Origin: a virus
Virus record (IMG/VR): IMGVR_UViG_3300045988_096313
Location: 32,001-96,000 of that record
Reading direction: 5' to 3' (one strand)
Length of the DNA: 64,000 nt
Program-made: the position numbers and the translations under genes
Shown: one piece after another, positions 7,125 to 63,828 of the stretch
How positions within the stretch are numbered: the first letter of the stretch is position 1
How the letters are laid out: every line of letters starts with the position of its first letter
The notes under the pieces: model-generated
What the model saw: only the letters and a program-made list of their open reading frames with translations
Told to the model about the DNA's origin: nothing
The model's database searches: none

Positions 7125-7135
7125 ACAAAAACAAA

Positions 7136-7327
7136 ATGAAAGCAATGAAAAAGATTATAAGATTCACGTTAGGGTTTATAATGGCGGCAATAACAATAGG
7201 TATGCTCATTCCCTTTATGATTGCTTCTATGTTTCTTGGCAAGAGGAGAAAGAACGCATTCAATATGTGGGTGTCGTGTTTCTTTACTCCTTTGATAAAC
7301 AAGGTAGGGCAATTGGTCAACTCATAA
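7136..7327 (+). CDS. small membrane protein (63 aa)
   Basis: Hydrophobic stretch FTLGFIMAAITIGMLIPFMIASMFL. Confidence 0.45.
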   Translation: MKAMKKIIRFTLGFIMAAITIGMLIPFMIASMFLGKRRKNAFNMWVSCFFTPLINKVGQLVNS

Positions 7328-7512: not shown

Positions 7513-8091
7513 ATGGCAAAACCGAAATTTGATTACAATGGCGATGCTTTCTACGATGAGATAGAACAGCTTGCAAAGCAAGGTCAGAAGGATTCTGAAA
7601 TTGCTTACGCCCTTGGTTTGAAGTTTGGGGTTGACCTAAATCCACAGGTCTTCAACCGAATGAAAAACGGAAAATATGAGAATTGGAATGAAGACGAAAA
7701 TGCGGAAAGAGGCGAAAGAATAACTCAATCCCTCGTGCGTGGCAGAGAGTTTATTAATGCAATAGTGCGTGGTAGATACCTTAAATGTGCCCTTGGCGGT
7801 GTAAAAGTAAAAGGAAAGACGACTACCAAAAGACACATGGTTGTAGATGGAGTTATGACGGATGATATAGTAGTAGAAACTAGAGAAACAGAACAGGAAA
7901 CCCCACCTAACATACAAGCTCTTTCTACTTGGTTATTCCATTATGATATGACTTGGAGAGAGATACAGAGAGGTAAAAAGGATGAAGAGGAAAAGGGCAT
8001 TCCTTTTGACCCTAAGAAAGGTATATCCGTCAACAAGTGGATTGAAAGAGAGATTGAGCAGGAAGCAGAAGAGCAAGAGGAGGATGAATAA
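7513..8091 (+). CDS. terS: terminase small subunit (putative)
   Basis: Lies directly upstream of terL and overlaps it. N-terminal HTH-like segment QKDSEIAYALGL and an acidic C-terminus. Confidence 0.55.
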   Translation: MAKPKFDYNGDAFYDEIEQLAKQGQKDSEIAYALGLKFGVDLNPQVFNRMKNGKYENWNEDENAERGERITQSLVRGREFINAIVRGRYLKCALGGVKVKGKTTTKRHMVVDGVMTDDIVVETRETEQETPPNIQALSTWLFHYDMTWREIQRGKKDEEEKGIPFDPKKGISVNKWIEREIEQEAEEQEEDE

Positions 8092-9374: not shown

Positions 9375-9480
9375 ATGACAAATATAATTACTTTTGTAAG
9401 AAAAATACAAGTGTTTAAATATTAGATAGTTAGTGTAAGTACTCTATAAGGGTGAATAAACGTCTAGTGTAAATAAAAAA

Positions 9481-9591: not shown

Positions 9592-9599
9592 TACCTTTG
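9592..9599 (+). promoter_or_regulatory. -7 promoter box TACCTTTG (portal promoter)
   Basis: Matches TAnnTTTG. Lies 19 nt upstream of ATG 9618. Confidence 0.6.
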
Positions 9600-9617
9600 C
9601 TTCAAAAAGTTATAAGG

Positions 9618-11030
9618 ATGTTTGTAGATTCAATTATTCAGATAAAGACATATTTTCGAAACCTCACGCTCAACGCATTGGGTGTGGAGAGAAGCATCTT
9701 CGAACGTTTGGAAGATAATGATGTTGATTCTGTCGTAAACATGATGGAACAACATGATTTCGATGTGGATAATGCTATTTCGGAATATAATCCGCAAACT
9801 CACAAGGTGATGAGCCGTGAGGATAAATGGGTAAAGGGAGAGAAGCCATATAGGACGGAGAAGTTGGCAAGGACAAGACAGAGATACATTAATGAGGTAG
9901 AATTGTTTTTTTTGTTAGGTAATCCGGTAATGTGGAAGAAGACTGAAGGTGATGATGAAGCCTTTGAGTTATACAAAAAATACTTGAAGGATATATACTT
10001 CAATACCAAACTACGCCAATGCAAGCGACTTGCAGGTTCGGAAACCGAAAGCGGTTTTGTTTTTAATTTCTCGCAAAAAAACGGAAAAATGCATGTTGAT
10101 GTGTATGTTGCAGCTCGTTCAAAGGGACATAAGATGAGAGAGTTGTTTGACCAGTATGGAAACATGCTTGCTTTTGCTATTGGTTATTCCTTAAAGCGAG
10201 AGTCAAAGACTATCGAATGTTGGGATATATTGACATCCGTTTTTAACTATCATTGTGAACGTGGTGGCTTTGGGTGGAAAGTGTATAAGTATCCTAATCC
10301 GACAGGAAAAATTAATGGCATTTATTTTCGTCAGCCAAAGGCATGGGAAGGAGCAGAACCGAGAATGGAACGTGAAGAAATGCTTGATTCCAAGATAGGA
10401 GATACTAACAACTACTTTGCTGACCCTATTGCCGCTGCAACTGCTGACGTGATACAATCAATCCCTAAGCGGAACAAGCCAGGTAAACTCATACAACTTA
10501 CAGGCAAGAACTCTAGGTTTGAATATATCAACCCACCTCAGAATTCCGAAATCCGCAAGGCAGAGAAAGAAGACTTGGCTCAGTCTATATTGTTTGATAC
10601 GTTTACACCGGATATGTCACCGGAACTGATGAAAGCTATGAGTACGCTTACAAGTGTAGGCATAAAACGAGCGTTGGTATTGGGTTACATCAAACGAGCG
10701 AACCGAATGGAAATCTATGAAGAACTTGTCGGTAGATTATCGCATGTGATTATAGCCGTTATGAAGGAACTATATCCTGAGATGAGAAGCAAGTTGGATA
10801 AGCTGGAAGTGGAGTTCGATTTCGCAGAGCCGTTCGAGGATGACAAAAAGGATAAGTGGAAAGTAATAGCGGAACTATACAATCAAGGTGTACTATCATT
10901 GGAGACTGCTGTTCAAATGTTGGCTCTTACTGATGCTCCTGCTGAAGAAATCGAAAAGATACGCAAAGATTCAGAAGATAAAGTAGCATTAGCTGCAAAA
11001 GTAAAGGGAAACGAAAACACAACTTCATAA
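9618..11030 (+). CDS. portal protein (SPP1 gp6-like)
   Basis: About 470 aa, immediately after the terminase genes. Start moved to the first ATG after the promoter, because the ORF-track TTG at 9597 lies inside the -7 box. Confidence 0.7.
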   Translation: MFVDSIIQIKTYFRNLTLNALGVERSIFERLEDNDVDSVVNMMEQHDFDVDNAISEYNPQTHKVMSREDKWVKGEKPYRTEKLARTRQRYINEVELFFLLGNPVMWKKTEGDDEAFELYKKYLKDIYFNTKLRQCKRLAGSETESGFVFNFSQKNGKMHVDVYVAARSKGHKMRELFDQYGNMLAFAIGYSLKRESKTIECWDILTSVFNYHCERGGFGWKVYKYPNPTGKINGIYFRQPKAWEGAEPRMEREEMLDSKIGDTNNYFADPIAAATADVIQSIPKRNKPGKLIQLTGKNSRFEYINPPQNSEIRKAEKEDLAQSILFDTFTPDMSPELMKAMSTLTSVGIKRALVLGYIKRANRMEIYEELVGRLSHVIIAVMKELYPEMRSKLDKLEVEFDFAEPFEDDKKDKWKVIAELYNQGVLSLETAVQMLALTDAPAEEIEKIRKDSEDKVALAAKVKGNENTTS

Positions 11031-11646: not shown

Positions 11647-11694
11647 AAACTTACAAGGATATTGAGCGATTATGAAAACTTACAAGGATATTGA
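11641..11694 (+). repeat. 29-bp-period tandem duplication of the fibre start region
   Basis: TTATGAAAACTTACAAGGATATTGA occurs at 11641..11665 and again at 11670..11694. The first copy gives a 9-codon mini-ORF overlapping the Dit stop. Confidence 0.9.
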
Positions 11695-14600
11695 TATAAA
11701 GTATTACGATAATGACGGAAACATACATGTAAGATGTTCTGTTCCCGTAACACAGGATGCATTGGTTCACTATGAATTAATGCAGTCCCACTATTGTAAG
11801 CTTTCCTTTAAGCTTACTAAGCCTACATATTTCTTACTTGGTGATTTTATAGATACACCATATGGACGATTTGAACTAATAGACTTAATTAAGGCCAAGG
11901 ATAATGATACTATTGGATATTCCTATGAGATACAATTTGATGCATATTATCGTAAGTTAAAGAATAAGATCTTGAAGTATCGCCCTAATACAGGTTCACA
12001 AGAAGCGACATTCTCTCTTACTTCAAAAATAAGCACCCATGTAGAGGTGATTATGAAAAGTTTAGCTTATTATGCGAAGTTAGACAAGTCTTATCTTTAC
12101 GACCCTAAATTTGAAGGCGAAGGTACGGACTATACTTATGTTATTGATGCGAGCGTAGACGCAAATGCTGCAAAGCTTATAACCTACTCAAACACAAGTA
12201 TGTTGGATGCTATTGCAAATATTGCTCAGACGTTTGAATGTGAATGGTGGTTTGAAGGCAATATTCTACATTTTGGTACTTGCGAGAATACAAATGCGAT
12301 TGTTGATTTCAGACTAAACGACAACATCGTTTCTATGTCAAGTTCGCAAAGCCAGTCCACTTATGCAAACAGGGTATATGCTTTTGGAGCTGCAAGGAAC
12401 TTGCCTAGTGGATATAAGAATGATGCAGATGCGGACATAACAAAGGATGGTGTTGTAGAAAAACGTCTCATGCTTCCTACTTCAGCAGAATGCTCTGACA
12501 AAAACAAGCAATTGTTAGCAGAGAATGGCTTTGAGCTGAAAAACGGATATATACAAGTCGGTGGACTCCATGAAGACCAGTATGTAGAGGGAGTAACAAC
12601 AAATGATGATATTTATCCAAGAAACCTTATCAAAACGTCTAAGGTGACATCATACGAAAAAGATGTAGAGGATGAAAGTACGCCCGAAGAGGGTGATTAC
12701 ATCAAACGGACTTTCTATCGTGTAAATTCGCTTACTATTGTCAATGATGATGGCGAAAAAACAGGTGATATGGCTTTCCGAAAGGCGTATATTCTTAGTG
12801 GTAAGAATTTACATATAGTGTTCCAAAGCGGTTCACTTAATGGTATGGACTTCGAGTGTGAGTTTAATCCAGATGGAGTTTCGGAAATACTTAGAGATAA
12901 TGATGGCAATCCGATTTTAAAGTATGGAAAGGAACAGATAAATCCAAAATCACAGGTCTTTGAGATTGTTGCTAATGAGGATTATGGTCGTTTTTTGCCG
13001 GACACGGCATTACACCCAAAAGATGGAGATACTTTTGTTCTCTATAATTGGGATTCTACCAAATTGGGCGATACTTTGGTTTCTGCTGCTTCGAATGAGT
13101 TGTTGACGGACGCTATTAAAAATTTGAAGAAGTCTATGATAGACCCTACGACATATACATGTACCGCTGAGGCTAATTATTCATTCAGTCAAGGTCGTGG
13201 CAACTTTCATGGGGTAGGAGACAGGGTTAACCTTTACAATAAGGGTTATGATGACAGCTATAGGTCTTCAAGAATTATCGGCTATGAACTTAATTTGGAT
13301 ATTCCTTATGATGGAGCAAAATATTATGTCGGAGAAAAACCGTCATATTCACGGCTCAATGCAATGGAGTCTAAAATTGAGGAACTTGTTTATAACGGAC
13401 AGAGTTATCTTAATGGCAATGGAGGCGGTGGAAAATCAATTTACATTATTAAAAGTTACGACAAGACTGCACCTACTGATTACAATGTGTATTCCGCAAA
13501 GGCTGTTGACGAGCAAAGATTAAACAAACTTAAGGATGACACCGCCAAGGGAACTATCACTTGGGAGAAGGTGCAGAAGCTTCTAAGTGGTTTGCTTATC
13601 GGTAACTCCAACAATGAGAACGGAGGCTCGTGGACTCCAGATGCAGAAGGTCGTTCGCACCTCATCACAGATTACTTGGAGGTAAGAATGAAGGCTATCT
13701 TCGAGGAGCTGGTCATTAATAAAACATCCACCATCGGTGGTAAGGAGATAATCTCTCCTGCTGGTGGCGTGGTGGCTCATAAGGTAGAAGAAGTTACTGT
13801 GACATACAATAATGTGTCACAGAAGGCTTATCGTTGCTATTTCTTAGCAGAGCAAGACGGCGACAAGATAGACAACGACTTTGTTGTTGAAGACCAAGTG
13901 CGCTCGGAGTCATTCAACTTGAATGCAGGAAAGTACCACAAGACAGGCAACCACTTCTTTTGGCGATTGGCAATCGGTCGTGACGAGGAACCTGTAGAGT
14001 TGGAAGGAAAGAAATACCATTACATCGACCTCTCGGAAACGGATTGCGCAACAGGTAGCGATGTTCCTATGAAGGGCGATGTACTCAGCCAATGCGGTAA
14101 CAGAAGCGACCCTATGAGACAGAGCTGCTTGGTATTCTCTTCGGTAGATACCTATTCGCCATCCATTAGCCTCTATCACGGCATCAACAGCTATTCCTTT
14201 GCCAATAGGGAGTATGTGGAATATGGTGTGAATAAGCAGACTAACAAGGCATTCTTCCACGTCTACGGAGATATGTACTTCGGAGACCGACCTACTAGTG
14301 CCAATAACTACGAGGGTGATTCCTACGTCAAGTATGATAGCGACAAGAAGAAAGTAACCATCAAGGGAGACTTGGATATTAAGTCCACCTATGATGGCAA
14401 AACCTTGGATAAGTATATCGCAGACAAGAGTTTGGATAAGAATGCCGTTGAGACCATTATCAAGAAATCGGAGACGATTATCGACCTTCAAAACCAGATA
14501 GACGGTGCAATCGAGACATGGTTCTACGATGGCGTTCCTACATTGAAAAATGAGCCAGCAGTCGGATGGGACACGGACATGATGAAAAACCATCTTGGGG

Positions 14601-17600
14601 ATTTGTATTATGACAATAAGACGGGCAAGGCATACCGCTTTGCCAAGGATGGCTCTACCTATAAGTGGATTATCATCACAGACACGGAACTGACCAAGGC
14701 ACTCGAAGATTCAAGCCAAGCACTCAAAGATGCAAAATCAAAGAGACGTATCTTCGGCTCTCAGCCAGTTCCACCATACGACGTGAACGATATGTGGGTC
14801 AATGCCACCTATCCTAGCGATGGAAGTACCTACAAGAATGAAATCTTGAAGTGTTCCACCTCCAAGGCAGAAGGTGAAGAGTTTGATATTGCCGATTGGA
14901 AATTGGCTAGCAAGTATACCGATGACACGAAGGCAGAGGAAGCAAAGAAAGCTGCTGAGAAGGCGCAAGCAGAGATTAAGGACACGCAAACTAATTTGAT
15001 TGCCCTCGGAACGACCGTATCTAACAATAAGAAGGCTTTCGATGCTTTTACCTCTGATGGCTACTTGGATAGTTCTGAGATTGCGGCTATTGCGCAGGAT
15101 AGCAAGCGTTTGGAGGACGATTATAATGCAGCCGTTGAGTCGTATAATAATGTTGTTGGCTCTAAGTTCTTGTTAGATAAGGATGGTAAAGAAACGACCT
15201 ATAAAACGGATTTGGTTTCAGCTAAGGCTACACTCGATAGCGCAAAAAATGAACTCATTACCTATCTTTCTGACATCGTAAGCAGATACAACGCTTCTGA
15301 TTCCAATGAAAAGGCTACCATCAAGGCGGCTGCGGCTCAGAAGTATACCAACTTCACCAATGCTTATAAGGCTTTCTACGACAAGCTGGGTGTGGCGAAC
15401 AACTATATCACGTCTAATCTGTTTGATGGTCTCAATACTAAGCTCATCACCAATATGGCTGGTCTTGAATACATCAAGGCTGCACTTGTTGATGGAGACA
15501 CAGTAGTCAAGGGTGGTCTTATCCTCTCTACATTGATAGCCTTACGTAACGATAAGGGAAATGTTACCGCAGGTATCAATGGAGCGGACACGAAGGAGAA
15601 TGGCATCGCCCTTTGGCTTGGTGGTAAGGCTATCGACAAGCAAGCCTCCACGACAACAGAGGAAGAGAAGAAAATTGCTGCCAAGTCCCTCCTACGCTTT
15701 GACGGAACTGGCTACTTCGCCAACGGCAACCTTTGGTGGGACGCAGATGGTACTTTGCACGCAGACCCGACATCTTTCATTATCAACAAGAATAATGTTG
15801 GTGTACAGCTTGCTCTCTTCGCACCTGTATGGAAGAGCGGAACGACCGACACAACAAAGCTGGCAAACGTATTATCTATCGACCCACAGAAGCCTTTCAC
15901 TCATCTTGACGTATCGGGTAACGTGACAACCGAAGGCAGCTTGAAAATTGGTGGAATCTATCTATCGTATGATAGTACCAACAATGCCCTTCGACTATCC
16001 AAGGATGCGGCAGGAAAGGAGGCTGCTAACTTCTATGCTCTTGGTGGTATTACCGCATACGGAAAAGGTGCAGGTACTTCTGGCGGTGGTGGCGGCTTGA
16101 ACGGCAGTGTGAAGAGTTATTCAAATGCCTTGAAACTTACATCAGAATCGCTGAATGAGATTGCCTCTGCCTACTCCATCAAGGCTCTTGATTCTCGTAT
16201 CTCCAGCCTAGAAGGTGGTAGTGCTACTGCTATTTCTGTCAGCGGTAGCGGTAATGCGGTTACGTCTGTCACCAAGAATGGTACTACTATCAGCGTAGTT
16301 AAAGGTGCAACGTTCCTCACCAGTCATCAGTCACTTGATGGTTACGTTAATGCAATATCTGTAAGTGGAAGTGGGAATGCTATCACGTCTGTATCTAAAA
16401 GCGGAAAGGGTATTACATTTACTAAAGGTGCTACATTTTTAACTTCTCACCAAAGTCTTGCTAACTATTATACCAAAAGTAGTGTAGATTCACTTCTTAG
16501 TGGTAAGTCGGCAACTAGTCATACACATAGTGTTAAGATTAACGGTGTTACTAAAACTATTGCAGCTACTGGTGGAACTGCTGTAGATTTAGGTACTTAT
16601 CTTACTTCTCATCAATCTTTAGCAAATTATGTTACTACTACAGATAGTAGACTTAGTGATAGTCGTTATCCTAAATTTGCTAATCGTACTTGGTATTTAG
16701 TAGGATACGATGCTTATATTGGCGACCATAATTTAAGTGGTTATTTTTGTGTTAAAAGTGCTAATGATAGTACTCGAGTTGGTATTTCATTATGGAATCG
16801 TGCTGAAAATGATTATGCTAATATATGGTTCGATAATACAAATATAAACCTTGATAAACAACTTGTTATGAATAACAAGCGTATTTGGATTCAAGGTGTC
16901 GGTACTGCTGGAGGTAATAATAATAGACTTACTCTTGTAGCAGGTATGCCTAGCGGATTAGCATATAATACTTCATGCCGTGGAACGATTCTTTATTCTA
17001 ACGGTATAGCATTTGCTGACCCATATAATGGTAAATCAAATAATGATAGTGGATGGATTAGACATTTAGAAACTTCTGGTAATAGTGGAACTTTAGAAAT
17101 AGCAGTAGGTGATGATGCTTCAAATGAAGAAATTCATTTCAGATGGTATGATACTACTCCAACTTCAGAACATATAAGATATGATATAACTGTTCCTAGA
17201 GCTACAGGTACTTTAGCTTTAACTAGTCAAATACCTACTTCTCTTAAATCTCCAAATTCATTATCTTGGAGTGGTTATAATACAGGTTCTTATGATGGTT
17301 CTAGTCCTAAAAGTTTTGTTATACCTAGTAATACTAATCAGTTAACTAATGGAGCTGGTTTTATAACTTCTAGTGCTAGCATTAGTGGTAATGCTGCTAC
17401 AGCAACAAATGCTGATAAACTTGATGGTATACACGCTAATGGTCTTCTCACTGCTATATCTAATTCCGATAAAGGTATTAGTATAACAGTTGGCGGAACT
17501 ACTAAAAGTGTTAGTAATATTAGTGTTAACTATGCTAGTAGTGCTGGAAATGCTGATACTGTTGATGGTTATCATGAAAGTTCATTTCTTAGATATAGAG

Positions 17601-19477
17601 GTGAGTATGGAGATGCATCTGTAACTAAAGATGGAGTTGGAGTTTATGGTTGGGCTCATACTAATGAGGGACATAATAATTTTCATGAAAGCTATGGTGA
17701 TATAATTAATATACAAGGCTATTCTACTTGGAGAACTAGATTTGATATAGGAACTAGTGGAAGAATTAGAATAATGCATGGTATAAATACTACTACTGCA
17801 ACTCAGGTTGGTTATCTTGCTTATTTACATGATAATGTGGCTTCTGCAACTAAACTTCAAACTGCTAGAACTATTTGGGGGCAAAGCTTTGATGGTACTG
17901 GTAATGTTAATGGAACTATTTACATAAACAATAATAATTCCTCTAACGGTGCTATACGATTAAACAATGATATAAATTCTAATGCTCGTATATCTGCTAT
18001 AGATAACCAAGTAATATTTAATACTGGTGCTGCTATTCGTTTTGGTGAAACTGCTTGGGATTGGAATCAGTGGGCTGGACTTAAATATAATCATTCCTAT
18101 AAAATTATTTATCTTGGTATAGCTGATGGTTCTGCATTTAATGCTAATAACGCACAAAGTGAAGGTACGCTTAGACTTGCTGGTATTAAAACTGTAACTC
18201 CTGATAGTGGAGCTAGAATTGGAAATACTGGTGGAGATTTATATCTAGGTAATAACAATAATAGTGCTTGGGTGAAAGTTCAAGACATGTGTAGTCAACA
18301 AAATAGTAATAATTGGCGTATATATCAAGCTGGTGGTGCTGTATTTAATACTCTTACAATTAATGGTGGCAGTACTTTTAATGGTGCAGTTAAAGTTAAC
18401 AATATGCTTACTGCTAAAGCTATAATGTTTACTACTACTGATGCAAATGCGTTTGGTACTGATATAAATAATTGGGATGGTAGTATTGGGGCTAATGTTA
18501 CTAATATGTTTAATGGTATTCCTCAGGACAATATACAAGTAGAATATTCAATGGATAATGGTGCTAGTTGGAATACATATCCTGGTAATCCAGAAAGTAG
18601 ATTTAATCTTGTAAATGATAATACTAGGGTATTTAATTATTATTTAGGGTGTAATAATATGCTTGGTGATACTGAGGCTGATAAACTTGCTCAAATAAAG
18701 AAAAATCAACTTAGGGTTACTGTTAAAATTCCTGCTGAAATATATCAAGAACTTAGTTGGATAAGTGTTGACGTAAATAACGGAGTTGATATAAAATGTC
18801 AAGTATACTTTGGAAGTAGTACTGGTGGTTATAAAGAATATGTTTCTAAAATAATGTTAGGATGGGCACACAAATGTGATATTTGTGTTGGTCCTTTAAA
18901 TGTAAATGTTGGTAATGATACATATCGTTATGTAAGATTAGTATTTAGTCATCCTAGTAATAATACTGCTTTACGTAATGGTATTGTTGCTAAAATTAGA
19001 GCTTTAGCTTTAACTAAATATATTTATAATAATGGCAGATATACATTTAGTACTACTGGTCATATATATGATTATGATGCTTATATGAATACTTATTTCC
19101 CTAATAGCATTCTTGCTGCTGGTGGAGTTACAGCTTATAAATCTTCTGATGTTCGTCTTAAAACTAACATTACTAAACTTAATTGTTTAAATGTTATTAA
19201 AAGTATTGGAGGTACTTATGAATTTGATTATCTTCGTGACCATAAACATAGTATTGGTTTTATTGCTCAACATGTAAATAATCCATTACTTAAAGATATA
19301 GTTGCTAAGGATAAAGATGGTTATCTAAAGATTAACTATTGGAGTCCTAAACTTATTAGTCTTGCTTTTGGTGCTTTAACTGAAATAGATGATGAAGTTG
19401 ATAGACTTAAAGCTAGAGTTAGAGAATTAGAAACTGAAGTTGAATATTTAAAAAATAAAGATTATGCCTTACAATAG
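11672..19477 (+). CDS. giant tail fibre / tail-tip receptor-binding protein (2601 aa) with C-terminal intramolecular chaperone
   Basis: Uninterrupted 7.8-kb ORF with fibre-type repeats (NADKLDGIHA, NADTVDGYHES, SHTHS, LTSHQSL). C-terminal SSDVRLKTNI...IGFIAQHV...coiled coil matches Peptidase_S74. Confidence 0.88.
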   Translation: MKTYKDIDIKYYDNDGNIHVRCSVPVTQDALVHYELMQSHYCKLSFKLTKPTYFLLGDFIDTPYGRFELIDLIKAKDNDTIGYSYEIQFDAYYRKLKNKILKYRPNTGSQEATFSLTSKISTHVEVIMKSLAYYAKLDKSYLYDPKFEGEGTDYTYVIDASVDANAAKLITYSNTSMLDAIANIAQTFECEWWFEGNILHFGTCENTNAIVDFRLNDNIVSMSSSQSQSTYANRVYAFGAARNLPSGYKNDADADITKDGVVEKRLMLPTSAECSDKNKQLLAENGFELKNGYIQVGGLHEDQYVEGVTTNDDIYPRNLIKTSKVTSYEKDVEDESTPEEGDYIKRTFYRVNSLTIVNDDGEKTGDMAFRKAYILSGKNLHIVFQSGSLNGMDFECEFNPDGVSEILRDNDGNPILKYGKEQINPKSQVFEIVANEDYGRFLPDTALHPKDGDTFVLYNWDSTKLGDTLVSAASNELLTDAIKNLKKSMIDPTTYTCTAEANYSFSQGRGNFHGVGDRVNLYNKGYDDSYRSSRIIGYELNLDIPYDGAKYYVGEKPSYSRLNAMESKIEELVYNGQSYLNGNGGGGKSIYIIKSYDKTAPTDYNVYSAKAVDEQRLNKLKDDTAKGTITWEKVQKLLSGLLIGNSNNENGGSWTPDAEGRSHLITDYLEVRMKAIFEELVINKTSTIGGKEIISPAGGVVAHKVEEVTVTYNNVSQKAYRCYFLAEQDGDKIDNDFVVEDQVRSESFNLNAGKYHKTGNHFFWRLAIGRDEEPVELEGKKYHYIDLSETDCATGSDVPMKGDVLSQCGNRSDPMRQSCLVFSSVDTYSPSISLYHGINSYSFANREYVEYGVNKQTNKAFFHVYGDMYFGDRPTSANNYEGDSYVKYDSDKKKVTIKGDLDIKSTYDGKTLDKYIADKSLDKNAVETIIKKSETIIDLQNQIDGAIETWFYDGVPTLKNEPAVGWDTDMMKNHLGDLYYDNKTGKAYRFAKDGSTYKWIIITDTELTKALEDSSQALKDAKSKRRIFGSQPVPPYDVNDMWVNATYPSDGSTYKNEILKCSTSKAEGEEFDIADWKLASKYTDDTKAEEAKKAAEKAQAEIKDTQTNLIALGTTVSNNKKAFDAFTSDGYLDSSEIAAIAQDSKRLEDDYNAAVESYNNVVGSKFLLDKDGKETTYKTDLVSAKATLDSAKNELITYLSDIVSRYNASDSNEKATIKAAAAQKYTNFTNAYKAFYDKLGVANNYITSNLFDGLNTKLITNMAGLEYIKAALVDGDTVVKGGLILSTLIALRNDKGNVTAGINGADTKENGIALWLGGKAIDKQASTTTEEEKKIAAKSLLRFDGTGYFANGNLWWDADGTLHADPTSFIINKNNVGVQLALFAPVWKSGTTDTTKLANVLSIDPQKPFTHLDVSGNVTTEGSLKIGGIYLSYDSTNNALRLSKDAAGKEAANFYALGGITAYGKGAGTSGGGGGLNGSVKSYSNALKLTSESLNEIASAYSIKALDSRISSLEGGSATAISVSGSGNAVTSVTKNGTTISVVKGATFLTSHQSLDGYVNAISVSGSGNAITSVSKSGKGITFTKGATFLTSHQSLANYYTKSSVDSLLSGKSATSHTHSVKINGVTKTIAATGGTAVDLGTYLTSHQSLANYVTTTDSRLSDSRYPKFANRTWYLVGYDAYIGDHNLSGYFCVKSANDSTRVGISLWNRAENDYANIWFDNTNINLDKQLVMNNKRIWIQGVGTAGGNNNRLTLVAGMPSGLAYNTSCRGTILYSNGIAFADPYNGKSNNDSGWIRHLETSGNSGTLEIAVGDDASNEEIHFRWYDTTPTSEHIRYDITVPRATGTLALTSQIPTSLKSPNSLSWSGYNTGSYDGSSPKSFVIPSNTNQLTNGAGFITSSASISGNAATATNADKLDGIHANGLLTAISNSDKGISITVGGTTKSVSNISVNYASSAGNADTVDGYHESSFLRYRGEYGDASVTKDGVGVYGWAHTNEGHNNFHESYGDIINIQGYSTWRTRFDIGTSGRIRIMHGINTTTATQVGYLAYLHDNVASATKLQTARTIWGQSFDGTGNVNGTIYINNNNSSNGAIRLNNDINSNARISAIDNQVIFNTGAAIRFGETAWDWNQWAGLKYNHSYKIIYLGIADGSAFNANNAQSEGTLRLAGIKTVTPDSGARIGNTGGDLYLGNNNNSAWVKVQDMCSQQNSNNWRIYQAGGAVFNTLTINGGSTFNGAVKVNNMLTAKAIMFTTTDANAFGTDINNWDGSIGANVTNMFNGIPQDNIQVEYSMDNGASWNTYPGNPESRFNLVNDNTRVFNYYLGCNNMLGDTEADKLAQIKKNQLRVTVKIPAEIYQELSWISVDVNNGVDIKCQVYFGSSTGGYKEYVSKIMLGWAHKCDICVGPLNVNVGNDTYRYVRLVFSHPSNNTALRNGIVAKIRALALTKYIYNNGRYTFSTTGHIYDYDAYMNTYFPNSILAAGGVTAYKSSDVRLKTNITKLNCLNVIKSIGGTYEFDYLRDHKHSIGFIAQHVNNPLLKDIVAKDKDGYLKINYWSPKLISLAFGALTEIDDEVDRLKARVRELETEVEYLKNKDYALQ
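16229..16474 (+). repeat. two tandem 123-nt (41-aa) repeats inside the fibre
   Basis: AISVSGSGNAVTSVTKNGTTISVVKGATFLTSHQSLDGYVN is followed by AISVSGSGNAITSVSKSGKGITFTKGATFLTSHQSLANYYT. A partial third copy (TYLTSHQSLANYV) lies near 16600. Confidence 0.9.
19142..19474 (+). other. Peptidase_S74 / endosialidase-type intramolecular chaperone auto-cleavage domain
   Basis: SSDVRLKTNITKL..YEFDY..HSIGFIAQHV..LKINY, then the coiled coil VDRLKARVRELETEVEYLK. Confidence 0.8.
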
Positions 19478-34981: not shown

Positions 34982-35332
34982 ATGAAAGAGTTAAGTTTTG
35001 ATAAGCTATACGTAAATTTTAGCAATTTATATTGTGAGTATCGTAGTAGAAAGCAATTCTTGAAGTGGTTGAAATCCTCAAAGAATCTTTCTGAAGAGTT
35101 GTTTGAAGTAACGCCAAGTGAAGGTGGTTCGTTTGATGTTGTGTTGTCTTTTGAAGAGATAAAGGATGTATTCCCGATTATGGAGAATTCATTGCCTAAG
35201 TACGAAAACGATATAAAGCAAGTTCTTTTGGCTATAAAGGAAATGGGACAGCTTGAAGTTGCAAAGATATGGCATGAGGATGATTGGGGTGATGGCTTTG
35301 TAGAGGATTTTTGTAAAACACATGATATTTAA
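34982..35332 (+). CDS. hypothetical protein (116 aa)
   Basis: Intact ORF whose stop overlaps the MTase start. Confidence 0.5.
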   Translation: MKELSFDKLYVNFSNLYCEYRSRKQFLKWLKSSKNLSEELFEVTPSEGGSFDVVLSFEEIKDVFPIMENSLPKYENDIKQVLLAIKEMGQLEVAKIWHEDDWGDGFVEDFCKTHDI

Positions 35333-36381
35333 TGAGGATACGGACGTTTGAACTTTGTGCCGGATATGACTCTCAACTGATGGCTTTAGAGCGGTTGAAG
35401 AAGAAATATTCTGATTTCGATTACGAGTGCATCGGCTGGTCGGAGATAGAGCCAAGTGCAATAGCCTTGCATAATGCTTGTTTTCCTAGTCTATCCTGCA
35501 AGAATTTCGGTGATATGACAAAGATAGATTGGAGCAAGGTTGAAGACTTTGACTTGCTGACATATTCAACACCTTGCCAGTCCATTTCGCAAGCCGGAAA
35601 GCAGAAAGGAATAGAGGAGGGGAGTAACACCCGTTCCTCTATCCTTTGGCTTACAAGAAACGCCATTATTACCACGAGACCGAAATACCTCTTGATGGAG
35701 AATGTTGAGGCTTTGGTTCAAACAAAGTTCATCGGGTTCTTCAATAAGTGGCGTAAGGAGTTGGAATCCTATGGATATGTCAACTATGCTAAGGTGATAA
35801 ATGCAGCCGATTGTGGTGTTCCTCAGAACAGAAAGCGTGTCTTTATGCTCTCTATACGAAATGATGGAGAAAAGACCGATTATCACTTTCCGAGAAAGAT
35901 AAAGCTGGAGAAACACTTAGTTGATGTCTTGGAGGAAAATGTGGACGAGAAGTACTTTTTGAGCGATGCCCTGCTATGTAAAGAGAAGTTTGTGTCAAAT
36001 GAAAGGAAAGAGCCTATGAGTGCAGCTATAAGAACTCGTTCTGAGGGGAAGTGGATAAAAGGCGAAATGCATAGTCCAAAGGTCGAGCTTGGAAAGAATA
36101 TAGCCAATACCATTACATCTGCGAGCAAGGACTCCTTGGTTGTGCTTGGAGAGACAAGGTTGCGCATTAGGCGTTTGACTCCGAGAGAACTCTTCCGCTT
36201 AATGAACGTTGACGAAGAATACATAGACAAGATGCTTGAAAGTGGAGTGTCGAAGTCAAGTCTTCAAAAGGCAGCTGGAAATTCGATTGTCGTAGCTTGC
36301 ATGGAAAGGATATTAGAGGAACTTTGGTTTAATAGCAAAGAGTTCGACGTTTCCGATGACGGACAATTATATATATTTTAG
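35332..36381 (+). CDS. DNA (cytosine-5)-methyltransferase
   Basis: FELCAGYDS (motif I-like), TYSTPCQSISQAGK (PCQ, motif IV), LLMENV (motif VI), QNRKRVF (motif VIII), GNSIVV (motif X). Confidence 0.85.
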   Translation: MRIRTFELCAGYDSQLMALERLKKKYSDFDYECIGWSEIEPSAIALHNACFPSLSCKNFGDMTKIDWSKVEDFDLLTYSTPCQSISQAGKQKGIEEGSNTRSSILWLTRNAIITTRPKYLLMENVEALVQTKFIGFFNKWRKELESYGYVNYAKVINAADCGVPQNRKRVFMLSIRNDGEKTDYHFPRKIKLEKHLVDVLEENVDEKYFLSDALLCKEKFVSNERKEPMSAAIRTRSEGKWIKGEMHSPKVELGKNIANTITSASKDSLVVLGETRLRIRRLTPRELFRLMNVDEEYIDKMLESGVSKSSLQKAAGNSIVVACMERILEELWFNSKEFDVSDDGQLYIF

Positions 36382-36637: not shown

Positions 36638-37774
36638 ATGATTTCATACAAGTATAAGCTATATCGGACAAAGAAGACGAAGCATTTGGATAAGATGCTC
36701 CGAGAGGCTTGCTATGTTTGGAATCATGCGCTTGCCTTGCAGATGAGGTACTATAAGCTGTACCACAAGTATATTCCAAAATTTACGATGTTTAAGCATT
36801 TCTCTAAGCGATATAAGCCAATATTGCTTAACGGTCATACCATTAGAGAAATTTTAGAGCGTTTGGATATAGCTTACCAACGTTTCTTCAAACACGATGC
36901 GAAGCGTCCACCGAAATTCAAAAAGGCATCTGAGTTTTGCTCATTTGTTTTTACTGATTGTGGTTATTCTCTTAGTGGAAATGAGTTGGCGATAAACAAG
37001 ATTAAGAAGTCCTTCAAGTTCTTTCTGAGCCGTTCCTACGATGGCAAGGTCAAGAGGGTGTCAGTTAAGCGCAACAAGTTGGGCGAGTACTTCATTATCC
37101 TTTGCTTAGATAAAGAAGCCAGACCTTACGGAAAGTCACACGATGGTGCATCCGTTGGCATCGACTTTGGATTGAAGAAGTACCTGACTTTGAGCGATGG
37201 GCGTGAGATTGATAATCCTCAGTTCCTTAAAGCTGACTTGCAGGAGCTTAGGCGCAGGTCTCGCAACTTCTCGAAGTGCAAGAAGGGCAGCAACAACCGC
37301 AAACGAAAGAAGCTGGAGTTGGAGCGATTGTATCGAAACATCGTGAACAAGCGTTCCGATTTTCAGTGGAAGTTGGCGCATGAGTTGTGCAAGCGTTATG
37401 ACTTGATTTGCTTGGAGGATTTGAACTTGGAGGGAATGATAAAGCGTTGGGGACGCAAGATGTCTGACTTGGCTCATGGCGATTTCGTTGTGAAGTTGGA
37501 GCACGTAGCGAAGAAGTATGGCGTTCAGGTTCATAAGATAGACCGCTTCTTCCCTTCGAGCCGTCTCTGTACCTGTGGTTACAAGAATGATAAGCTGTCA
37601 TTGAGTGATAGGATTTGGACTTGTCCTAGTTGTGGTGCAGTTCATCCTAGAGACCTCTTCGCAGCTGAGAATATACTTCGGCAGGGCATTGCCGAATTGG
37701 GGAGTGGTAGTAAGTCACCCAAGCACTCGCAAGGGCGCAGCCACGTTAGCCACCCAACAATTCCTTGCAAATAA
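36638..37774 (+). CDS. tnpB: TnpB (OrfB) RNA-guided RuvC nuclease
   Basis: Typical N-terminus MISYKYKLYRTKKT. RuvC triad candidates VGIDFGLKK (D), ICLEDLNL (E), HPRDLFAAENI (D). Zinc ribbon CTCG...CPSCG. Confidence 0.85.
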   Translation: MISYKYKLYRTKKTKHLDKMLREACYVWNHALALQMRYYKLYHKYIPKFTMFKHFSKRYKPILLNGHTIREILERLDIAYQRFFKHDAKRPPKFKKASEFCSFVFTDCGYSLSGNELAINKIKKSFKFFLSRSYDGKVKRVSVKRNKLGEYFIILCLDKEARPYGKSHDGASVGIDFGLKKYLTLSDGREIDNPQFLKADLQELRRRSRNFSKCKKGSNNRKRKKLELERLYRNIVNKRSDFQWKLAHELCKRYDLICLEDLNLEGMIKRWGRKMSDLAHGDFVVKLEHVAKKYGVQVHKIDRFFPSSRLCTCGYKNDKLSLSDRIWTCPSCGAVHPRDLFAAENILRQGIAELGSGSKSPKHSQGRSHVSHPTIPCK

Positions 37775-57978: not shown

Positions 57979-58317
57979 ATGACTACTTCAATTAAGAACA
58001 AGATGAGAAAGGTAATGCAGTTGGCACATAGAGCCTATCAGTTGAAATCAGCTTATATGAGTTGGGCAGAATGCTTGAAGCAAGCTTGGCAGGTAATCAA
58101 GCTGAAGGCTCGCATGAAGAAGCAGGTCGTTGAGTTCTACTTTCAGAAGATGAATGGTGAGGTAAGACAAGCCTTTGGTACTCTCCTTCAGAGCCACATT
58201 GACTATACTCCAAATGGTACAGGGCATGCAGCATCAAGAGATTGCATCCGCTATTGGGATGAAGCAAAGGGCGCATGGAGACAATTCAAGGCTTACAACT
58301 TCTTGCGAGTTGCATAA
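57979..58317 (+). CDS. hypothetical protein (112 aa), paralog of 63475..63810
   Basis: Roughly 75-80% amino-acid identity (by-eye estimate) to the inverted copy. Confidence 0.6.
   Translation: MTTSIKNKMRKVMQLAHRAYQLKSAYMSWAECLKQAWQVIKLKARMKKQVVEFYFQKMNGEVRQAFGTLLQSHIDYTPNGTGHAASRDCIRYWDEAKGAWRQFKAYNFLRVA
58027..58161 (+). repeat. 135-bp perfect inverted repeat, arm 1
   Basis: Identical to the reverse complement of 63628..63762 (checked base by base). Confidence 0.95.
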
Positions 58318-58356
58318 AGATATATTCACGTTCTAAGGTGTTTGGCGAGGCTTAAT

Positions 58357-58386
58357 AGGGGGTGTGCCTTTAAACACCCCTTTAGT
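58357..58386 (+). terminator. intrinsic terminator candidate
   Basis: GGGGTGT/ACACCCC stem followed by TTTAGTTT. Confidence 0.55.
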
Positions 58387-58411
58387 TTAGGACTTTTAAA
58401 GTATTTGAGAT

Positions 58412-58660
58412 ATGGAGACAATTGCTAAGTGTTTGAAAGAAGTGTTCTACAAAGGGCATCATATTACCAAGGTGGAGGACGTATTCGGTCAGATTGCCGT
58501 TCGCATTGATAATGTTGTTGAACCGGACTATGCTAGCATAGCAGAGGCGAAACGTGTAATCAATGGTAAAGCCCCAAAGTGGTTTAATGATGGTTATATG
58601 TGGGACGAAGCCAGCAAGAAAGTTGTAAAAGACCCTAACGCTTTCCGATGGGAGGAGTAA
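58412..58660 (+). CDS. hypothetical protein (82 aa)
   Basis: Intact ORF. Confidence 0.45.
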   Translation: METIAKCLKEVFYKGHHITKVEDVFGQIAVRIDNVVEPDYASIAEAKRVINGKAPKWFNDGYMWDEASKKVVKDPNAFRWEE

Positions 58661-58959
58661 GAAAACATAAGGTAAAGAACTTAAAACAATTGGTTATGGA
58701 AAAGTTTATTGATGGCAGTTATGTATTCGAGAAAACAAATGAGTTTCCGGATGGCTACGAAATTTGGGCGATTGGTCGAAGAAATTTCGAGCACAAAGGC
58801 TACGTACCATTGTGTGAGGTTGATGAGAACTACAACGTCAAAAGAGATACCTTGAAGGCTTTGAAAGTCAAGGATGAAGCATTTGCTTTGGCTTTGCTCT
58901 ATGAAGCCGTTAAACGAGGTGTCAACAAGAAGAAGTATAACAAAATGTTAAGTGCATAA
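58648..58959 (+). CDS. hypothetical protein (103 aa)
   Basis: Overlaps the upstream gene by 13 nt. An alternative start lies at 58696. Confidence 0.45.
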   Translation: MGGVRKHKVKNLKQLVMEKFIDGSYVFEKTNEFPDGYEIWAIGRRNFEHKGYVPLCEVDENYNVKRDTLKALKVKDEAFALALLYEAVKRGVNKKKYNKMLSA

Positions 58960-58963
58960 GAAC

Positions 58964-59260
58964 ATGGATGAGAATTTCTTGAATGTGCTCTATATCGAGC
59001 ACACGGACAAAATAGGCGTTCTAAAGGACGATAAGAACGAAAGGGTATCGGTTGTTCGTGGGACAGACAAAACGCTTGTAGAACGCAAAAGAGAGGGCAA
59101 AACGTACCTTCTTGTACCATTAACAAAGAACCATACTTTCAAGTGCAATGGCGATAGCTTGGAGGTTGATGGCAAGATTATCCCTAGCAAGGTATTTTTC
59201 CGTAAGGATGGTGCTCAGTGGATTGAGATTGACAAAGAAACGTTATTTAAGGTTGCGTAA
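58964..59260 (+). CDS. hypothetical protein, LVPLTK-family paralog (98 aa)
   Basis: MDENFLNVLYIEHTDKIGVL...LVPLTKNHTFKCNGDSLEVDGKIIPSKVFFRKDGAQWIEI aligns with the 62782..63081 product. Confidence 0.55.
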   Translation: MDENFLNVLYIEHTDKIGVLKDDKNERVSVVRGTDKTLVERKREGKTYLLVPLTKNHTFKCNGDSLEVDGKIIPSKVFFRKDGAQWIEIDKETLFKVA

Positions 59261-60079: not shown

Positions 60080-60364
60080 ATGAATATACTAGACTATTAT
60101 GAGGTTGTCACCTCAAAGATTTTCAAGTTGGAAAGCATGAACGAGGGGCTTGTATTGATAGCACCGGAGCAGGAGGTAGATGGAGTCCGTTCCTTGATGG
60201 TGGGATTATATGTTCCTGAGCATGAACGATACAAGATATATACTTTCCGTTCATCTATGAACGAGGGCGAACTTGGCGACAAGTACAAGGCGATGGTCGG
60301 CACGATGAATGTACTTAAACCGGATTGGGACAGAATTAGAAAGAAAAGACGGAAGAGGATTTAA
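60080..60364 (+). CDS. hypothetical protein (94 aa)
   Basis: Intact ORF, convergent with the RHH gene (4-nt overlap). Confidence 0.45.
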   Translation: MNILDYYEVVTSKIFKLESMNEGLVLIAPEQEVDGVRSLMVGLYVPEHERYKIYTFRSSMNEGELGDKYKAMVGTMNVLKPDWDRIRKKRRKRI

Positions 60365-60549
60365 CCTCTTACCGCCTTAAGGATGCATTCGTTGATGAAG
60401 TCACTCTTGTTTCCGTCTAAGGAATTGAGGATGTCGAGCGTTTCTTCTGTGGCAGAAAAGAACATACGTTTAGCGCATTTTTTCTTGCGTCCACACCCTT
60501 CTCTTGCACCTCCCCATGACTTGGTTGTCTTTTCTTCGTTTGTGCCCAT
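60361..60549 (-). CDS. ribbon-helix-helix-like protein with basic WGGAREGCGRKKK arm
   Basis: The strand-helix-helix pattern RMFFSATEETLDILNSLDGNKSDFINECILKAV. Paralogous arm to the 30023..30205 product. Confidence 0.5.
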   Translation of the reverse strand: MGTNEEKTTKSWGGAREGCGRKKKCAKRMFFSATEETLDILNSLDGNKSDFINECILKAVRG

Positions 60550-60583
60550 ACGTTAAAAATTTGGTGGTTTGAAATAAATTTCG

Positions 60584-60591
60584 TACCTTTG
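60584..60591 (+). promoter_or_regulatory. -7 promoter box TACCTTTG driving the antisense small RNA
   Basis: Matches TAnnTTTG. Its end lies 5 nt before the first paired base of the RNA (60596). Confidence 0.5.
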
Positions 60592-60595
60592 CAAC

Positions 60596-60733
60596 GAAAT
60601 CCCAAGGTGGGAGGCGGTGGTGTGAACACTACCTCCCTGTTGGAAATCTAAGCTTTACAATTCAATTGTAAGAGCAACTTTGATTTTCCAAATCCGAACT
60701 GAAATGTAAACTCTCATACGGCTTTGGGATTTC
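60596..60733 (+). ncRNA. candidate 138-nt structured small RNA, antisense to the 5' leader of the RHH gene
   Basis: P1 pairs GAAATCCCAA (60596-605) with TTGGGATTTC (60724-33). A hairpin GGGAGG...CCTCCC lies at 60609-37, and its inner G-T wobble is valid only on the plus strand. P2 pairs TTGGAAATC (60640-48) with GATTTTCCAA (60682-91), enclosing a TTACA/TGTAA hairpin. Confidence 0.5.
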
Positions 60734-60793
60734 ATTTCACCTACTCTTTCAGGTTTTCGGCATCCCCTTTGCAATCTCTCATTGATTACACAG

Positions 60794-60801
60794 CAAAGAT
60801 A
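60794..60801 (-). promoter_or_regulatory. -7 promoter box (TATCTTTG on minus strand) for the RHH gene
   Basis: The plus strand reads CAAAGATA. Implies a leader of about 240 nt. Confidence 0.5.
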
Positions 60802-60811
60802 CGAAAAATAT

Positions 60812-60834
60812 TTGAAATATGCAAACTATTTCAA
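60812..60834. promoter_or_regulatory. dyad TTGAAATA-N7-TATTTCAA (operator candidate)
   Basis: 8-bp inverted arms, 11-40 nt upstream of the minus-strand -7 box. Confidence 0.45.
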
Positions 60835-60896
60835 GATTATTTTAAGAAAATATGAAAATAAATTAGAGTTTTCTTGCATTTCACGAAGGTTTTTAT

Positions 60897-60904
60897 TACC
60901 TTTG
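60897..60904 (+). promoter_or_regulatory. -7 promoter box TACCTTTG
   Basis: Matches TAnnTTTG. Lies 29 nt upstream of ATG 60933. Confidence 0.55.
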
Positions 60905-62781: not shown

Positions 62782-63081
62782 TTATGCTACCATTGATAGC
62801 ATTTCTTTTGATTGCATCTGAATCCATTGACAAGCATCCTTGCGGAAAAAGATGTCAGAATCGAGCTGCTTGCCATCCACAATGATGTAATTACCCTTAT
62901 ACTCAAATTTGTGGTTTCGGGTCAATGGGACTAGCAGATAGACCGCCATGTCCTTTTTATCCAACACCAGTGTAAGGTCAGTACCCAATATATGTGAAAT
63001 AGTGTTGTCTTTGTCGTCACACAATACACCAATCTTCTCATCGTAGCTCACGTAGAGAGCATCCATTAAATTCTTATCCAT
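62782..63081 (-). CDS. hypothetical protein, LVPLTK-family paralog (99 aa)
   Basis: Start moved to ATG 63081 (MDKNLMDALYVSY) by alignment to 58964..59260. The ORF-track N-terminus covers box copy 12. Confidence 0.55.
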   Translation of the reverse strand: MDKNLMDALYVSYDEKIGVLCDDKDNTISHILGTDLTLVLDKKDMAVYLLVPLTRNHKFEYKGNYIIVDGKQLDSDIFFRKDACQWIQMQSKEMLSMVA

Positions 63082-63114
63082 ATCTCTTAAATATTTAATG
63101 TTCAAAGTCCGGTG

Positions 63115-63135
63115 CAGTTTAGCGTGTGCCTCACG
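63115..63135 (-). promoter_or_regulatory. conserved hairpin-box copy 12 (CGTG-AGGCA-CACG)
   Basis: The minus strand reads CGTGAGGCACACG-CTAAACTG in the intergenic gap, 33 nt before ATG 63081. Confidence 0.55.
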
Positions 63136-63142
63136 AAATCTA

Positions 63143-63442
63143 TTACAAATCACACTCGTATGAGTATTGCTTTTTCAGCTTGTTCAATGCGTTCTCGGTA
63201 ACGTAGTAGATGTTATCGAAATATTCGCTTTTCTTGATGCTTCGGCTTTCTTTCAGCTCTACCTTGTGATTGAATGTCACTTCGTAGCGGTTTGCGATGC
63301 TTGTAATCAAGAAATCGACCTCACGCTTATGTCTGTCCAGCTCGGTCTCTTTATACTCACCACGCTTGATAAATGCGTCCTTGTTCGTCTCTTCGATGGT
63401 TGCAACCATATTGCCTTGCATCACGATAATCTTTGCGCTCAT
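63143..63442 (-). CDS. hypothetical protein (99 aa)
   Basis: ATG 63442 is preferred. The ORF-track start at 63517 would overlap the upstream gene by 43 nt. Confidence 0.45.
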   Translation of the reverse strand: MSAKIIVMQGNMVATIEETNKDAFIKRGEYKETELDRHKREVDFLITSIANRYEVTFNHKVELKESRSIKKSEYFDNIYYVTENALNKLKKQYSYECDL

Positions 63443-63474
63443 ATATAGTTTCTTTTTAATCGTTAATAATCTTG

Positions 63475-63810
63475 TTAAGCAACTCGAATCAAGTTGTAGT
63501 TCTTGAATTGTCTCCACTCTCCCTTGACCTCATCCCAGTACTTGGTGCAGTCCTTGCAAGCGTAACCCTTGCCGTTTGGAGTGTAGTCAATGTGACTCTC
63601 CATCAAAGTGCCGAAAGCCTGACGAATCTCACCATTCATCTTCTGAAAGTAGAACTCAACGACCTGCTTCTTCATGCGAGCCTTCAGCTTGATTACCTGC
63701 CAAGCTTGCTTCAAGCATTCTGCCCAACTCATATAAGCTGATTTCAACTGATAGGCTCTATGCGCCATATTCATCACTTCTCTCATCATATTCTTAAAAA
63801 TAGTAGCCAT
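63475..63810 (-). CDS. hypothetical protein (111 aa), paralog of 57979..58317
   Basis: ATG 63810 is preferred, by analogy with the plus-strand copy. Confidence 0.6.
   Translation of the reverse strand: MATIFKNMMREVMNMAHRAYQLKSAYMSWAECLKQAWQVIKLKARMKKQVVEFYFQKMNGEIRQAFGTLMESHIDYTPNGKGYACKDCTKYWDEVKGEWRQFKNYNLIRVA
63628..63762 (-). repeat. 135-bp perfect inverted repeat, arm 2
   Basis: Reverse complement identical to 58027..58161. Confidence 0.95.
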
Positions 63811-63828
63811 AATCACTATACCGTTTTA

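Follow-up and report, generated by a model that had tools for sequence, protein, structure and literature searches.

A conserved Bacteroidota phage cassette combining a small open reading frame, a predicted cis-antisense RNA and a GGAR protein gene

Introduction

Antisense control of small open reading frames (ORFs) is a known kind of regulation, and so are the countertranscripts of phages. In the Ibs/Sib pairs of Escherichia coli (compare also hok/sok and AapA1/IsoA1), an ORF of ~19–20 amino acids (aa) lies under an antisense RNA of ~140 nucleotides (nt) with its own promoter; the mRNA also forms a long-range 5′–3′ helix around the ORF. The phage RNAs P22 sar (immI), lambda OOP, P1 c4 and P4 CI RNA are short antisense RNAs with a promoter within a phage regulatory operon, in the vicinity of antirepressor- or repressor-type genes. 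The P22 operon also encodes the ribbon-helix-helix (RHH) protein Arc. Here we describe a locus that has these features of both groups in common, in the virus record IMGVR_UViG_3300045988_096313 of IMG/VR, of which we analyzed positions 32,001 to 96,000 (64,000 nt; hereafter the window, with positions counted from its first letter). We class it as resembling a type I pair or a phage countertranscript in its workings, and as a member of neither. Comparison of its sequence with that of its relatives makes it, on balance, probable that the locus is a conserved three-part cassette of Bacteroidota phages: a small ORF, a cis-antisense small RNA (sRNA) that represses it, and a GGAR/RHH-like protein.

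According to a 2025 paper (PMC12390103), toxin–antitoxin (TA) systems of type I had until then been reported from Proteobacteria, Firmicutes and Tenericutes alone. In Bacteroides thetaiotaomicron, pairs of cis-antisense RNAs (BTnc143/144 and others) have been noted that include candidate small ORFs and recall type I TA systems (Ryan et al. 2020, PMC7366714). Those pairs comprise 80-nt RNAs in repeated copies near transposases, whereas the cassette has a ~140-nt junction RNA, lies in phage regulatory regions and is linked to a GGAR gene. Compared by description only, the two are unlikely to be identical, since the B. thetaiotaomicron pairs are 80 nt long and associated with insertion sequences.

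A conserved three-way-junction RNA with its own predicted promoter

The plus strand of the locus folds into a three-way junction preceded by a predicted promoter, and the small ORF lies on the opposite strand:

60560–60591, plus strand: predicted promoter of the antisense sRNA, with a −33 TTTG (60560–63), a 20-nt spacer and the −7 box TACCTTTG (60584–91)
60596–60737, plus strand: structured cis-antisense sRNA, a three-way junction (from minimum free energy fold, covariance model match, covariation and RNAalifold)
60596–60608 with 60721–60733, plus strand: P1, the terminal stem
60609–60637, plus strand: P2, a G+C-rich hairpin
60640–60691, plus strand: P3, a long middle hairpin with an apical stem-loop
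60692–60720, plus strand: J, a conserved single-stranded stretch
60734–60745, plus strand: U-rich tail after P1, AUUUCACCUACU, putatively where the sRNA ends or is terminated
60655–60717, minus strand: conserved small ORF of 20 aa plus stop, MRVYISVRIWKIKVALTIEL (from translation, conservation and codon periodicity)

P1 is closed by the RNA's two ends, GAAATCCCAA (60596–60605) being perfectly complementary to TTGGGATTTC (60724–60733). In P2, GGGAGG (60609–14) pairs with CCTCCC (60632–37), and the helix 60640–48/60682–91 of P3 is topped by an apical hairpin. For the plus-strand 138-mer (60596–60733) the minimum free energy (MFE) was −46.4 kcal/mol, with z = −4.26; among 200 shuffles none was as stable.

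Relatives were gathered by BLAST against phage records, by a protein-guided scan, by DNA pattern scans of viral and metagenome collections and, in addition, by a protein-guided scan of species-representative genomes; a plain 16-mer scan returned mostly chance matches and needed BLAST filtering. At least about 40 distinct versions of the region were collected from human gut, rumen and other animal samples, some of them on contigs assigned to Bacteroides, Prevotella, Segatella and Bacteroidaceae. The versions are mosaic, one type of hairpin P2 being combined with differing middle domains. Each of the 29 variants that were folded singly by MFE formed the three-way junction of P1, P2, P3 and J.

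Nine distant "class 3" sequences, and not the window itself, went into a covariance model that retrieved the window RNA at 60596–60737 on the plus strand (66.7 bits, E about 1e-13). When all variants were aligned with MAFFT, P1 alone was recovered, and an alignment of 38 distinct sequences guided by the model was substituted for it and used to measure covariation. Standard pairs filled 93.2% of the cells, against 77.3% after column shuffling and 34–62% when partners were slid by 1–3 columns. Both sides changed in 29 of the 38 base pairs, and all 500 shuffles stayed below the observed values. RNAalifold, predicting freely on the model-guided alignment, returned the identical architecture. Since P1 and P2 lie outside the small ORF, their covariation is not explicable by coding constraint. 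The consensus of the alignment after P1 reads (A/G)UUUU(N)CC. The plus-strand RNA matched nothing in Rfam at gathering or permissive thresholds (E ≤ 10), and ARAGORN found no tRNA or tmRNA, despite a T-loop-like GGTTCGAG in type B copies.

For promoters we used the Bacteroidota consensus as summarized in PMC7366714, scanning for TTTG-N18–21-TAnnTTTG. This composite pattern occurs 15 times in the window where 1.9 ± 1.4 occurrences were expected, an eight-fold enrichment, and the matches include 60560–60591 (plus) and 60825..60794 (minus). By pattern match, both −7 boxes of the locus are thus part of complete Bacteroidota-type TTTG-N20-TAnnTTTG promoters. The two predicted promoters are convergent and ~190 bp apart, and the plus-strand promoter (60560–60591) sits between the two minus-strand cistrons. 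A TAnnTTTG box ends 4–9 nt before the start of the RNA model in 30 of 30 distinct contexts, including 7 RNA-bearing loci from the protein scan that were retrieved without any DNA pattern.

A promoter so placed might instead serve the genes beyond it, the RNA being the leader or terminated transcript of the downstream plus-strand operon (ASCH here; terS-terL-portal or integrase elsewhere) with read-through by antitermination, like lambda PR′/6S RNA. In several unrelated phages the next gene in the direction of the sRNA does start a packaging or other long operon. Yet the downstream genes vary widely and are sometimes convergent (L241), and about half of them have a −7 box of their own, including ASCH at 60898. 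The mRNA promoter, moreover, stands head-on to the sRNA in 24 of the 30 contexts, its −7 box 44–71 nt beyond the sRNA. We regard a role as downstream leader as very improbable.

Which strand acts

Three observations favor a functional RNA made from the plus strand, one of them being the upstream box. A second comes from the interior pairs of P1, which hold 42 G·U cells and 0 A·C cells across the alignment, and a third from the P1 duplex, which is stabler in the plus sense in 35 of the 38 variants (mean 2.5 kcal/mol). For the structure as a whole the count is 63 G·U versus 38 A·C cells, with 21 of the A·C cells at two peripheral pairs, and the RNAalifold consensus energy is −37.05 for the plus and −32.80 for the minus strand. 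A reading at the level of DNA, as an origin or cruciform, was ruled out by the strand-specific G·U pairs that keep the helices paired.

The minus strand of the 138-mer folds at least as well (z = −6.06), and folding thermodynamics therefore cannot pick the strand. It could be supposed that only the mRNA makes use of the structure, in the form of a cis-regulatory leader or attenuator after the Rfam motif DUF805b that precedes it there, and that the plus-strand box is not an active promoter. Besides the fold, such a role would suit the Rfam class of DUF805b, which is cis-regulatory, and some A·C cells in P3, which are G·U on the minus strand. What it leaves out is the full promoter match, whose distance is fixed in all 30 contexts, and in the mRNA the G·U pairs of P1 become mismatches; we consider it quite unlikely. 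P2 as a minus-strand terminator was ruled out as well, as a U-run follows P2 in no class.

An earlier note on this DNA, made from the sequence alone, had predicted much of this: a promoter-driven structured plus-strand RNA, antisense to the transcript of the 62-aa gene and facing a convergent promoter. The boxes, helices, dyad and 62-aa ORF that it named were all recovered at the same positions, its 138-nt fold was reproduced with the energy and z-score given above, and the prediction itself is supported by the pattern matches and the boxes upstream of all 30 contexts. One G-T pair had been called valid on the plus-strand RNA only. This pair, G60616·U60630, is genuine and is G-C in close relatives. 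That the helices are conserved in relatives, for which the note had proposed a covariation check on homologous loci, agrees with the both-sided change in 29 of 38 pairs.

A small ORF behind a DUF805b leader

We infer that the minus strand is transcribed too. The features of its predicted transcript and promoter region, in addition to the small ORF, are:

60794–60825, minus strand: predicted promoter of the mRNA of the small ORF and the 62-aa gene, with a −33 TTTG, a 20-nt spacer and the −7 box TATCTTTG (60801..60794)
60812–60834, no strand assigned: dyad TTGAAATA-N7-TATTTCAA, surrounding the −33 box of the minus-strand promoter
60771–60789, minus strand: 5′-terminal hairpin of the mRNA, GUAAUC-N7-GAUUGC (from folds)
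60738–60770, minus strand: DUF805b RNA motif (RF02914), a 5′-untranslated region (5′-UTR) element of the small-ORF mRNA (40.3 bits versus a gathering score of 35.6)
60361–60549, minus strand: 62-aa protein with N-terminal WGGAREGxGRKKK, possibly RHH-like, the second cistron of the minus-strand operon (from the ORF)
60353–60370, minus strand: terminator-like hairpin where the 62-aa gene has its stop codon, with CCGUCUUUUC after it (from a terminator scan)

In every class the minus strand carries an ATG-to-stop ORF of 20–23 codons with an invariant ...R/K-I/V-W-K-I/V-K/E... core. The ORF is intact in 36 of the 38 distinct variants, which encode 28 distinct peptides, and ORFs of at least 19 codons occur on the minus strand in 36/38 variants versus 1/38 on the plus strand. 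Class lengths are 20, 22 or 23 aa, with all differences in frame, and an in-frame upstream ATG at 60735 is present in some lineages only. Of the six frames, this one has the lowest ratio of nonsynonymous to synonymous polymorphism (pN/pS), with 0.44 for the 20-aa set and 0.27 for the 23-aa set. Column variability at codon positions 1, 2 and 3 is 14.0, 8.3 and 16.5 in the 20-aa set and 10.2, 2.0 and 14.1 in the 23-aa set, position 2 being the most constrained in both (permutation P = 0.015 and 5e-5, respectively). The whole ORF (60717..60655), start codon included, lies within the sRNA (60596–60737), and J (60692–60720) is the exact complement of its start codon and first nine or so codons.

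DUF805b is the sole Rfam match in the 64-kb window. It runs from 60770 to 60738 in mRNA sense, inside what had been noted as a leader. Of 20 related loci, 17 have it abutting the sRNA from the other strand; relatives score 38.8–52 bits. The Rfam motif is a 5′-UTR piece of 35 nt only and, unlike the cassette, it also precedes ordinary genes without the sRNA and small ORF. Scanning viral contigs for its core gave 22 further loci, of which only 4 had the sRNA. Away from the cassette the motif lies 21–31 nt (mode 23–24) before the start codons of unrelated long genes, a spacing kept in 15 of 17 other sites, which suggests that DUF805b is a general fixed-distance translation-start element in Bacteroidota phages. 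Since it behaves as such a 5′-UTR element, the small ORF is exactly where a translated gene would be expected: its ATG follows DUF805b by 22 nt in the window and by 21–24 nt across cassette loci. Examples of the core before long genes are L337:662–684, L340:3514–3536 and L343:12431–12453, from a set of viral contigs of non-gut samples (L334–L354). In the literature searched, the name "DUF805b" occurred in one unrelated paper only, and in the discovery paper, so far as searched, the motif goes unmentioned.

The hairpin at the predicted mRNA start has 6–9 bp; its sequence differs by lineage while the pairing is kept, and its U·G wobbles are valid on the minus strand only. In the fold of the minus-strand mRNA a long-range 5′–3′ helix brackets the small ORF. 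The terminator-like hairpin at 60370..60353 is likely the end of the operon.

The 62-aa GGAR protein and its linkage to the RNA

The GGAR gene stands beside the RNA in 35 of 37 variants retrieved through the RNA, and the RNA is present in 10 of 11 loci retrieved through the 62-aa protein alone. In many relatives the ATG of the 62-aa gene is only 14–17 nt from the −7 box of the sRNA. This leaves no room for a separate promoter, and the gene, being the second cistron, therefore probably depends for its transcription on the minus-strand promoter upstream. Several loci depart from the common layout. A clean natural deletion has removed the sRNA body and the small ORF in L232, where the 62-aa gene is kept, and the small ORF is truncated in L325. 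L240 has tandem cassettes (7070–7210 and 7869–8012), the first preceding an unrelated 140-aa gene and the second lacking a small-ORF start. Two cassette copies are also found in L296 (2439–2561 and 14142–14263). In type B phages (L357–L359:4189–5699) the 62-aa gene converges on queuosine-precursor genes, for GTP cyclohydrolase I, a radical-SAM protein and PTPS, with stop codons that overlap by 4 nt as they do in the window (60361–60364).

The protein family comprises more than 440 homologue clusters, all unannotated, with an invariant N-terminal GG-R-G-GR motif. The window protein had no match in Pfam, PHROGs or NCBIfam, a PDB profile search gave nothing relevant, and Foldseek found 0 matches in the PDB for its model. 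RHH_7 matched only 2 of 47 homologues (E = 0.038), and a divergent partner protein in L296 matched a VapB antitoxin (E = 0.028). In the AlphaFold2 (AF2) monomer (pLDDT, the model's per-residue confidence, 74) the chain is disordered to residue 26, confidently extended but called coil at 27–34, and helical at 35–43 and 48–61. In RHH proteins the strand forms in the dimer only. The model is compatible with an RHH identity and does not establish it. That identity, which the earlier note had taken for granted in speaking of an RHH regulator, is best treated as a reasonable guess.

The same note had read the sRNA as a countertranscript acting on a long leader of this gene. The promoter and the span of the leader are present, and the leader proves to hold DUF805b and the conserved 20-aa ORF. 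Antisense layout and linkage (10 of 11 loci) fit countertranscript control, while the RNA ends 47 nt before the ATG of the 62-aa gene. If the leader were non-coding and expression of the RHH gene the sole target of the sRNA, as with P22 sar, one could point to the convergent promoters, the operon mRNA's fully complementary 5′ part, the tight linkage to the 62-aa gene and the antirepressor- or CI-type neighbors (Rha in the window; P22_AR_N, Bro-N and CI repressor elsewhere). A non-coding leader is hard to square with a codon-periodic conserved ORF at the canonical distance from DUF805b to ATG. An sRNA that stops 47 nt (window) or about 29 nt (short variants) before the 62-aa ATG, moreover, cannot mask that start. 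Whereas sar masks the ribosome site of ant, the cassette RNA masks the 20-aa ORF and not the start of the downstream protein. It is also larger than the phage countertranscripts and forms a three-way junction, and a sequence or Rfam relation to them was not found. We judge sole control of the RHH gene unlikely; the small ORF is the more likely direct target of the sRNA.

The dyad had been proposed as an operator. Its left half lies inside the −33/−7 spacer of the minus-strand promoter, and an alignment of 8 loci shows this half, in crAss001 too, and the −33/−7 elements to be conserved, with the right half conserved only loosely. The promoter region (60793–60860) shares 84% identity over 68 nt, in the same orientation, with the stretch that precedes the tRNA array of crAss001. 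This comparison led us to downgrade an RHH operator, and promoter architecture is largely the better reading of the dyad. The crAss001 counterpart (MH675552.1 1589–1657, equal to L333:1501–1569) lies directly upstream of the tRNA array, and the phages are otherwise unrelated.

Proposed mechanism and relation to type I modules

In the arrangement that we favor, the minus-strand promoter (60825..60794) would give an mRNA of ~440 nt with, in order, the 5′ hairpin, the DUF805b leader, the 20-aa ORF, a G+C-rich hairpin, the 62-aa gene and the terminator-like hairpin. The plus-strand promoter (60560–60591) would give a three-way-junction RNA of ~140 nt closed by its own 5′ and 3′ ends. Because J complements the start and first codons of the small ORF, we propose that the sRNA represses its translation: pairing through J with the start region would block it. 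An unpaired antisense stretch opposite a start codon is the classical design for fast pairing. Secondarily, cleavage of the duplex, collision of converging polymerases, or both, might lower the level of the operon's full-length mRNA and, with it, that of the 62-aa protein.

Several findings weigh against this arrangement or soften the evidence for it. In the 20-aa set the ORF is under moderate constraint (P = 0.015), and some loci were retrieved by a pattern that itself includes the TTTG belonging to the −7 box. The alignment used for covariation was fitted to the structure of the model itself and hence leans towards it. For whole molecules the mean MFE is −50.5 (plus) versus −49.7 (minus), the plus strand being stabler in only 18 of 38 variants, and P3 holds both G·U and A·C cells, which makes it strand-ambiguous. 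The terminator scan found no canonical intrinsic terminator after the sRNA. Lastly, the translation start region of the 62-aa gene lies outside the sRNA, which could therefore act on that gene only indirectly.

The cassette might alternatively be a type I TA module, in which the 20-aa peptide would be toxic to the host and the sRNA its antitoxin, serving phage maintenance, exclusion or timing. The geometry is of the Ibs/Sib type, with a ~20-aa ORF fully under a ~140-nt antisense RNA that has its own promoter, and the mRNA has both a 5′ hairpin and the long-range 5′–3′ helix around the ORF. The L232 deletion takes ORF and RNA body together and leaves the 62-aa gene, and copies have decayed or been duplicated elsewhere (L325, L240b). 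The peptide, which has three to five charged residues distributed over its length, is cationic (+2 to +5), and the 20-aa classes are strongly β-amphipathic, with a hydrophobic moment of 0.6–0.8 at 170°. It resembles designed membrane-active (IRIK)n peptides. In most type I families, Ibs among them, the toxin is a small hydrophobic peptide that spans the membrane as a helix, and no such helix is seen here: the best 19-residue Kyte-Doolittle window scores 0.3–1.2, against 1.35–2.85 for nine known toxins. The peptide shows no sequence relation to known toxin families, matching none of those in Pfam and NCBIfam up to E = 10. The cassette further differs from Ibs/Sib in host phylum and promoter type and in that its ORF comes first in an operon shared with the 62-aa protein, a near-constant tie for which a free-standing TA pair would have no need. 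We find the TA interpretation rather doubtful.

Returning to the three-part cassette, a wider formulation is possible, and we offer it tentatively. The locus may represent a widespread three-component module in which a cationic, β-amphipathic peptide of 20–23 aa, either a toxin or a regulatory micro-protein, is checked by a junction antisense RNA and coupled to a GGAR/RHH-like DNA-binding family. It would then be the first defined type I TA-like family in Bacteroidota phages, and the orphan Rfam motif DUF805b would gain a role as a fixed-distance translation-start leader. The proposed mechanism, for its part, would give Bacteroidota a defined antisense switch, place DUF805b in a functional context, and supply both a candidate new peptide effector and compact parts (promoters, leader and antisense RNA) for engineering gut Bacteroides. 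The RNA, peptide and GGAR protein families, their association and the DUF805b context are undescribed in Rfam, Pfam, NCBIfam and the literature searched. Very little has been explored of the regulatory RNAs and micro-proteins that gut Bacteroidota phages carry, and the cassette is common. It sits at divergent promoters near packaging operons, integrases, CI repressors or antirepressors, where decisions of the phage life cycle fall.

Genomic context and other features

Across loci two things are constant: the region has divergent promoters, and the cassette is a small stand-alone operon. The neighbors vary. They are ASCH and Rha genes in the window and, elsewhere, a terS-terL-portal operon, an integrase, a CI/S24 repressor, or P22-type (P22_AR_N) or Bro-N antirepressor genes. 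In a 67-kb metagenome contig (L285), matches to the CRISPR-DR49 repeat at 8058–9457 and 14366–14719 flank the cassette (12521–12907). A contig of a Prevotella metagenome-assembled genome (L234) has two SAM-I/IV riboswitch matches on the minus strand (1369–1465 and 1590–1694), just above the gathering score and less than 1 kb from the cassette, and a related phage (L360) has an S-adenosylmethionine synthetase gene near its cassette.

In the window, inverted paralogous gene pairs flank the region and bracket ~3.5 kb (57979–59260, plus strand, and 62782–63816, minus strand). One pair encodes proteins of 112 and 113 aa (57979–58317 and 63475–63816), the other proteins of 102 and 123 aa (58952–59260 and 62782–63153). 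Farther away, a 378-aa ORF at 36638–37774 on the plus strand matches a phage transposase (phrog_506, E = 1.5e-87) and lies beside a DNA methyltransferase gene (35332–36381). Downstream of the terminase (8091–9374) and portal (9597–11030) genes, a single ORF of 2601 aa occupies 11672–19477 on the plus strand.

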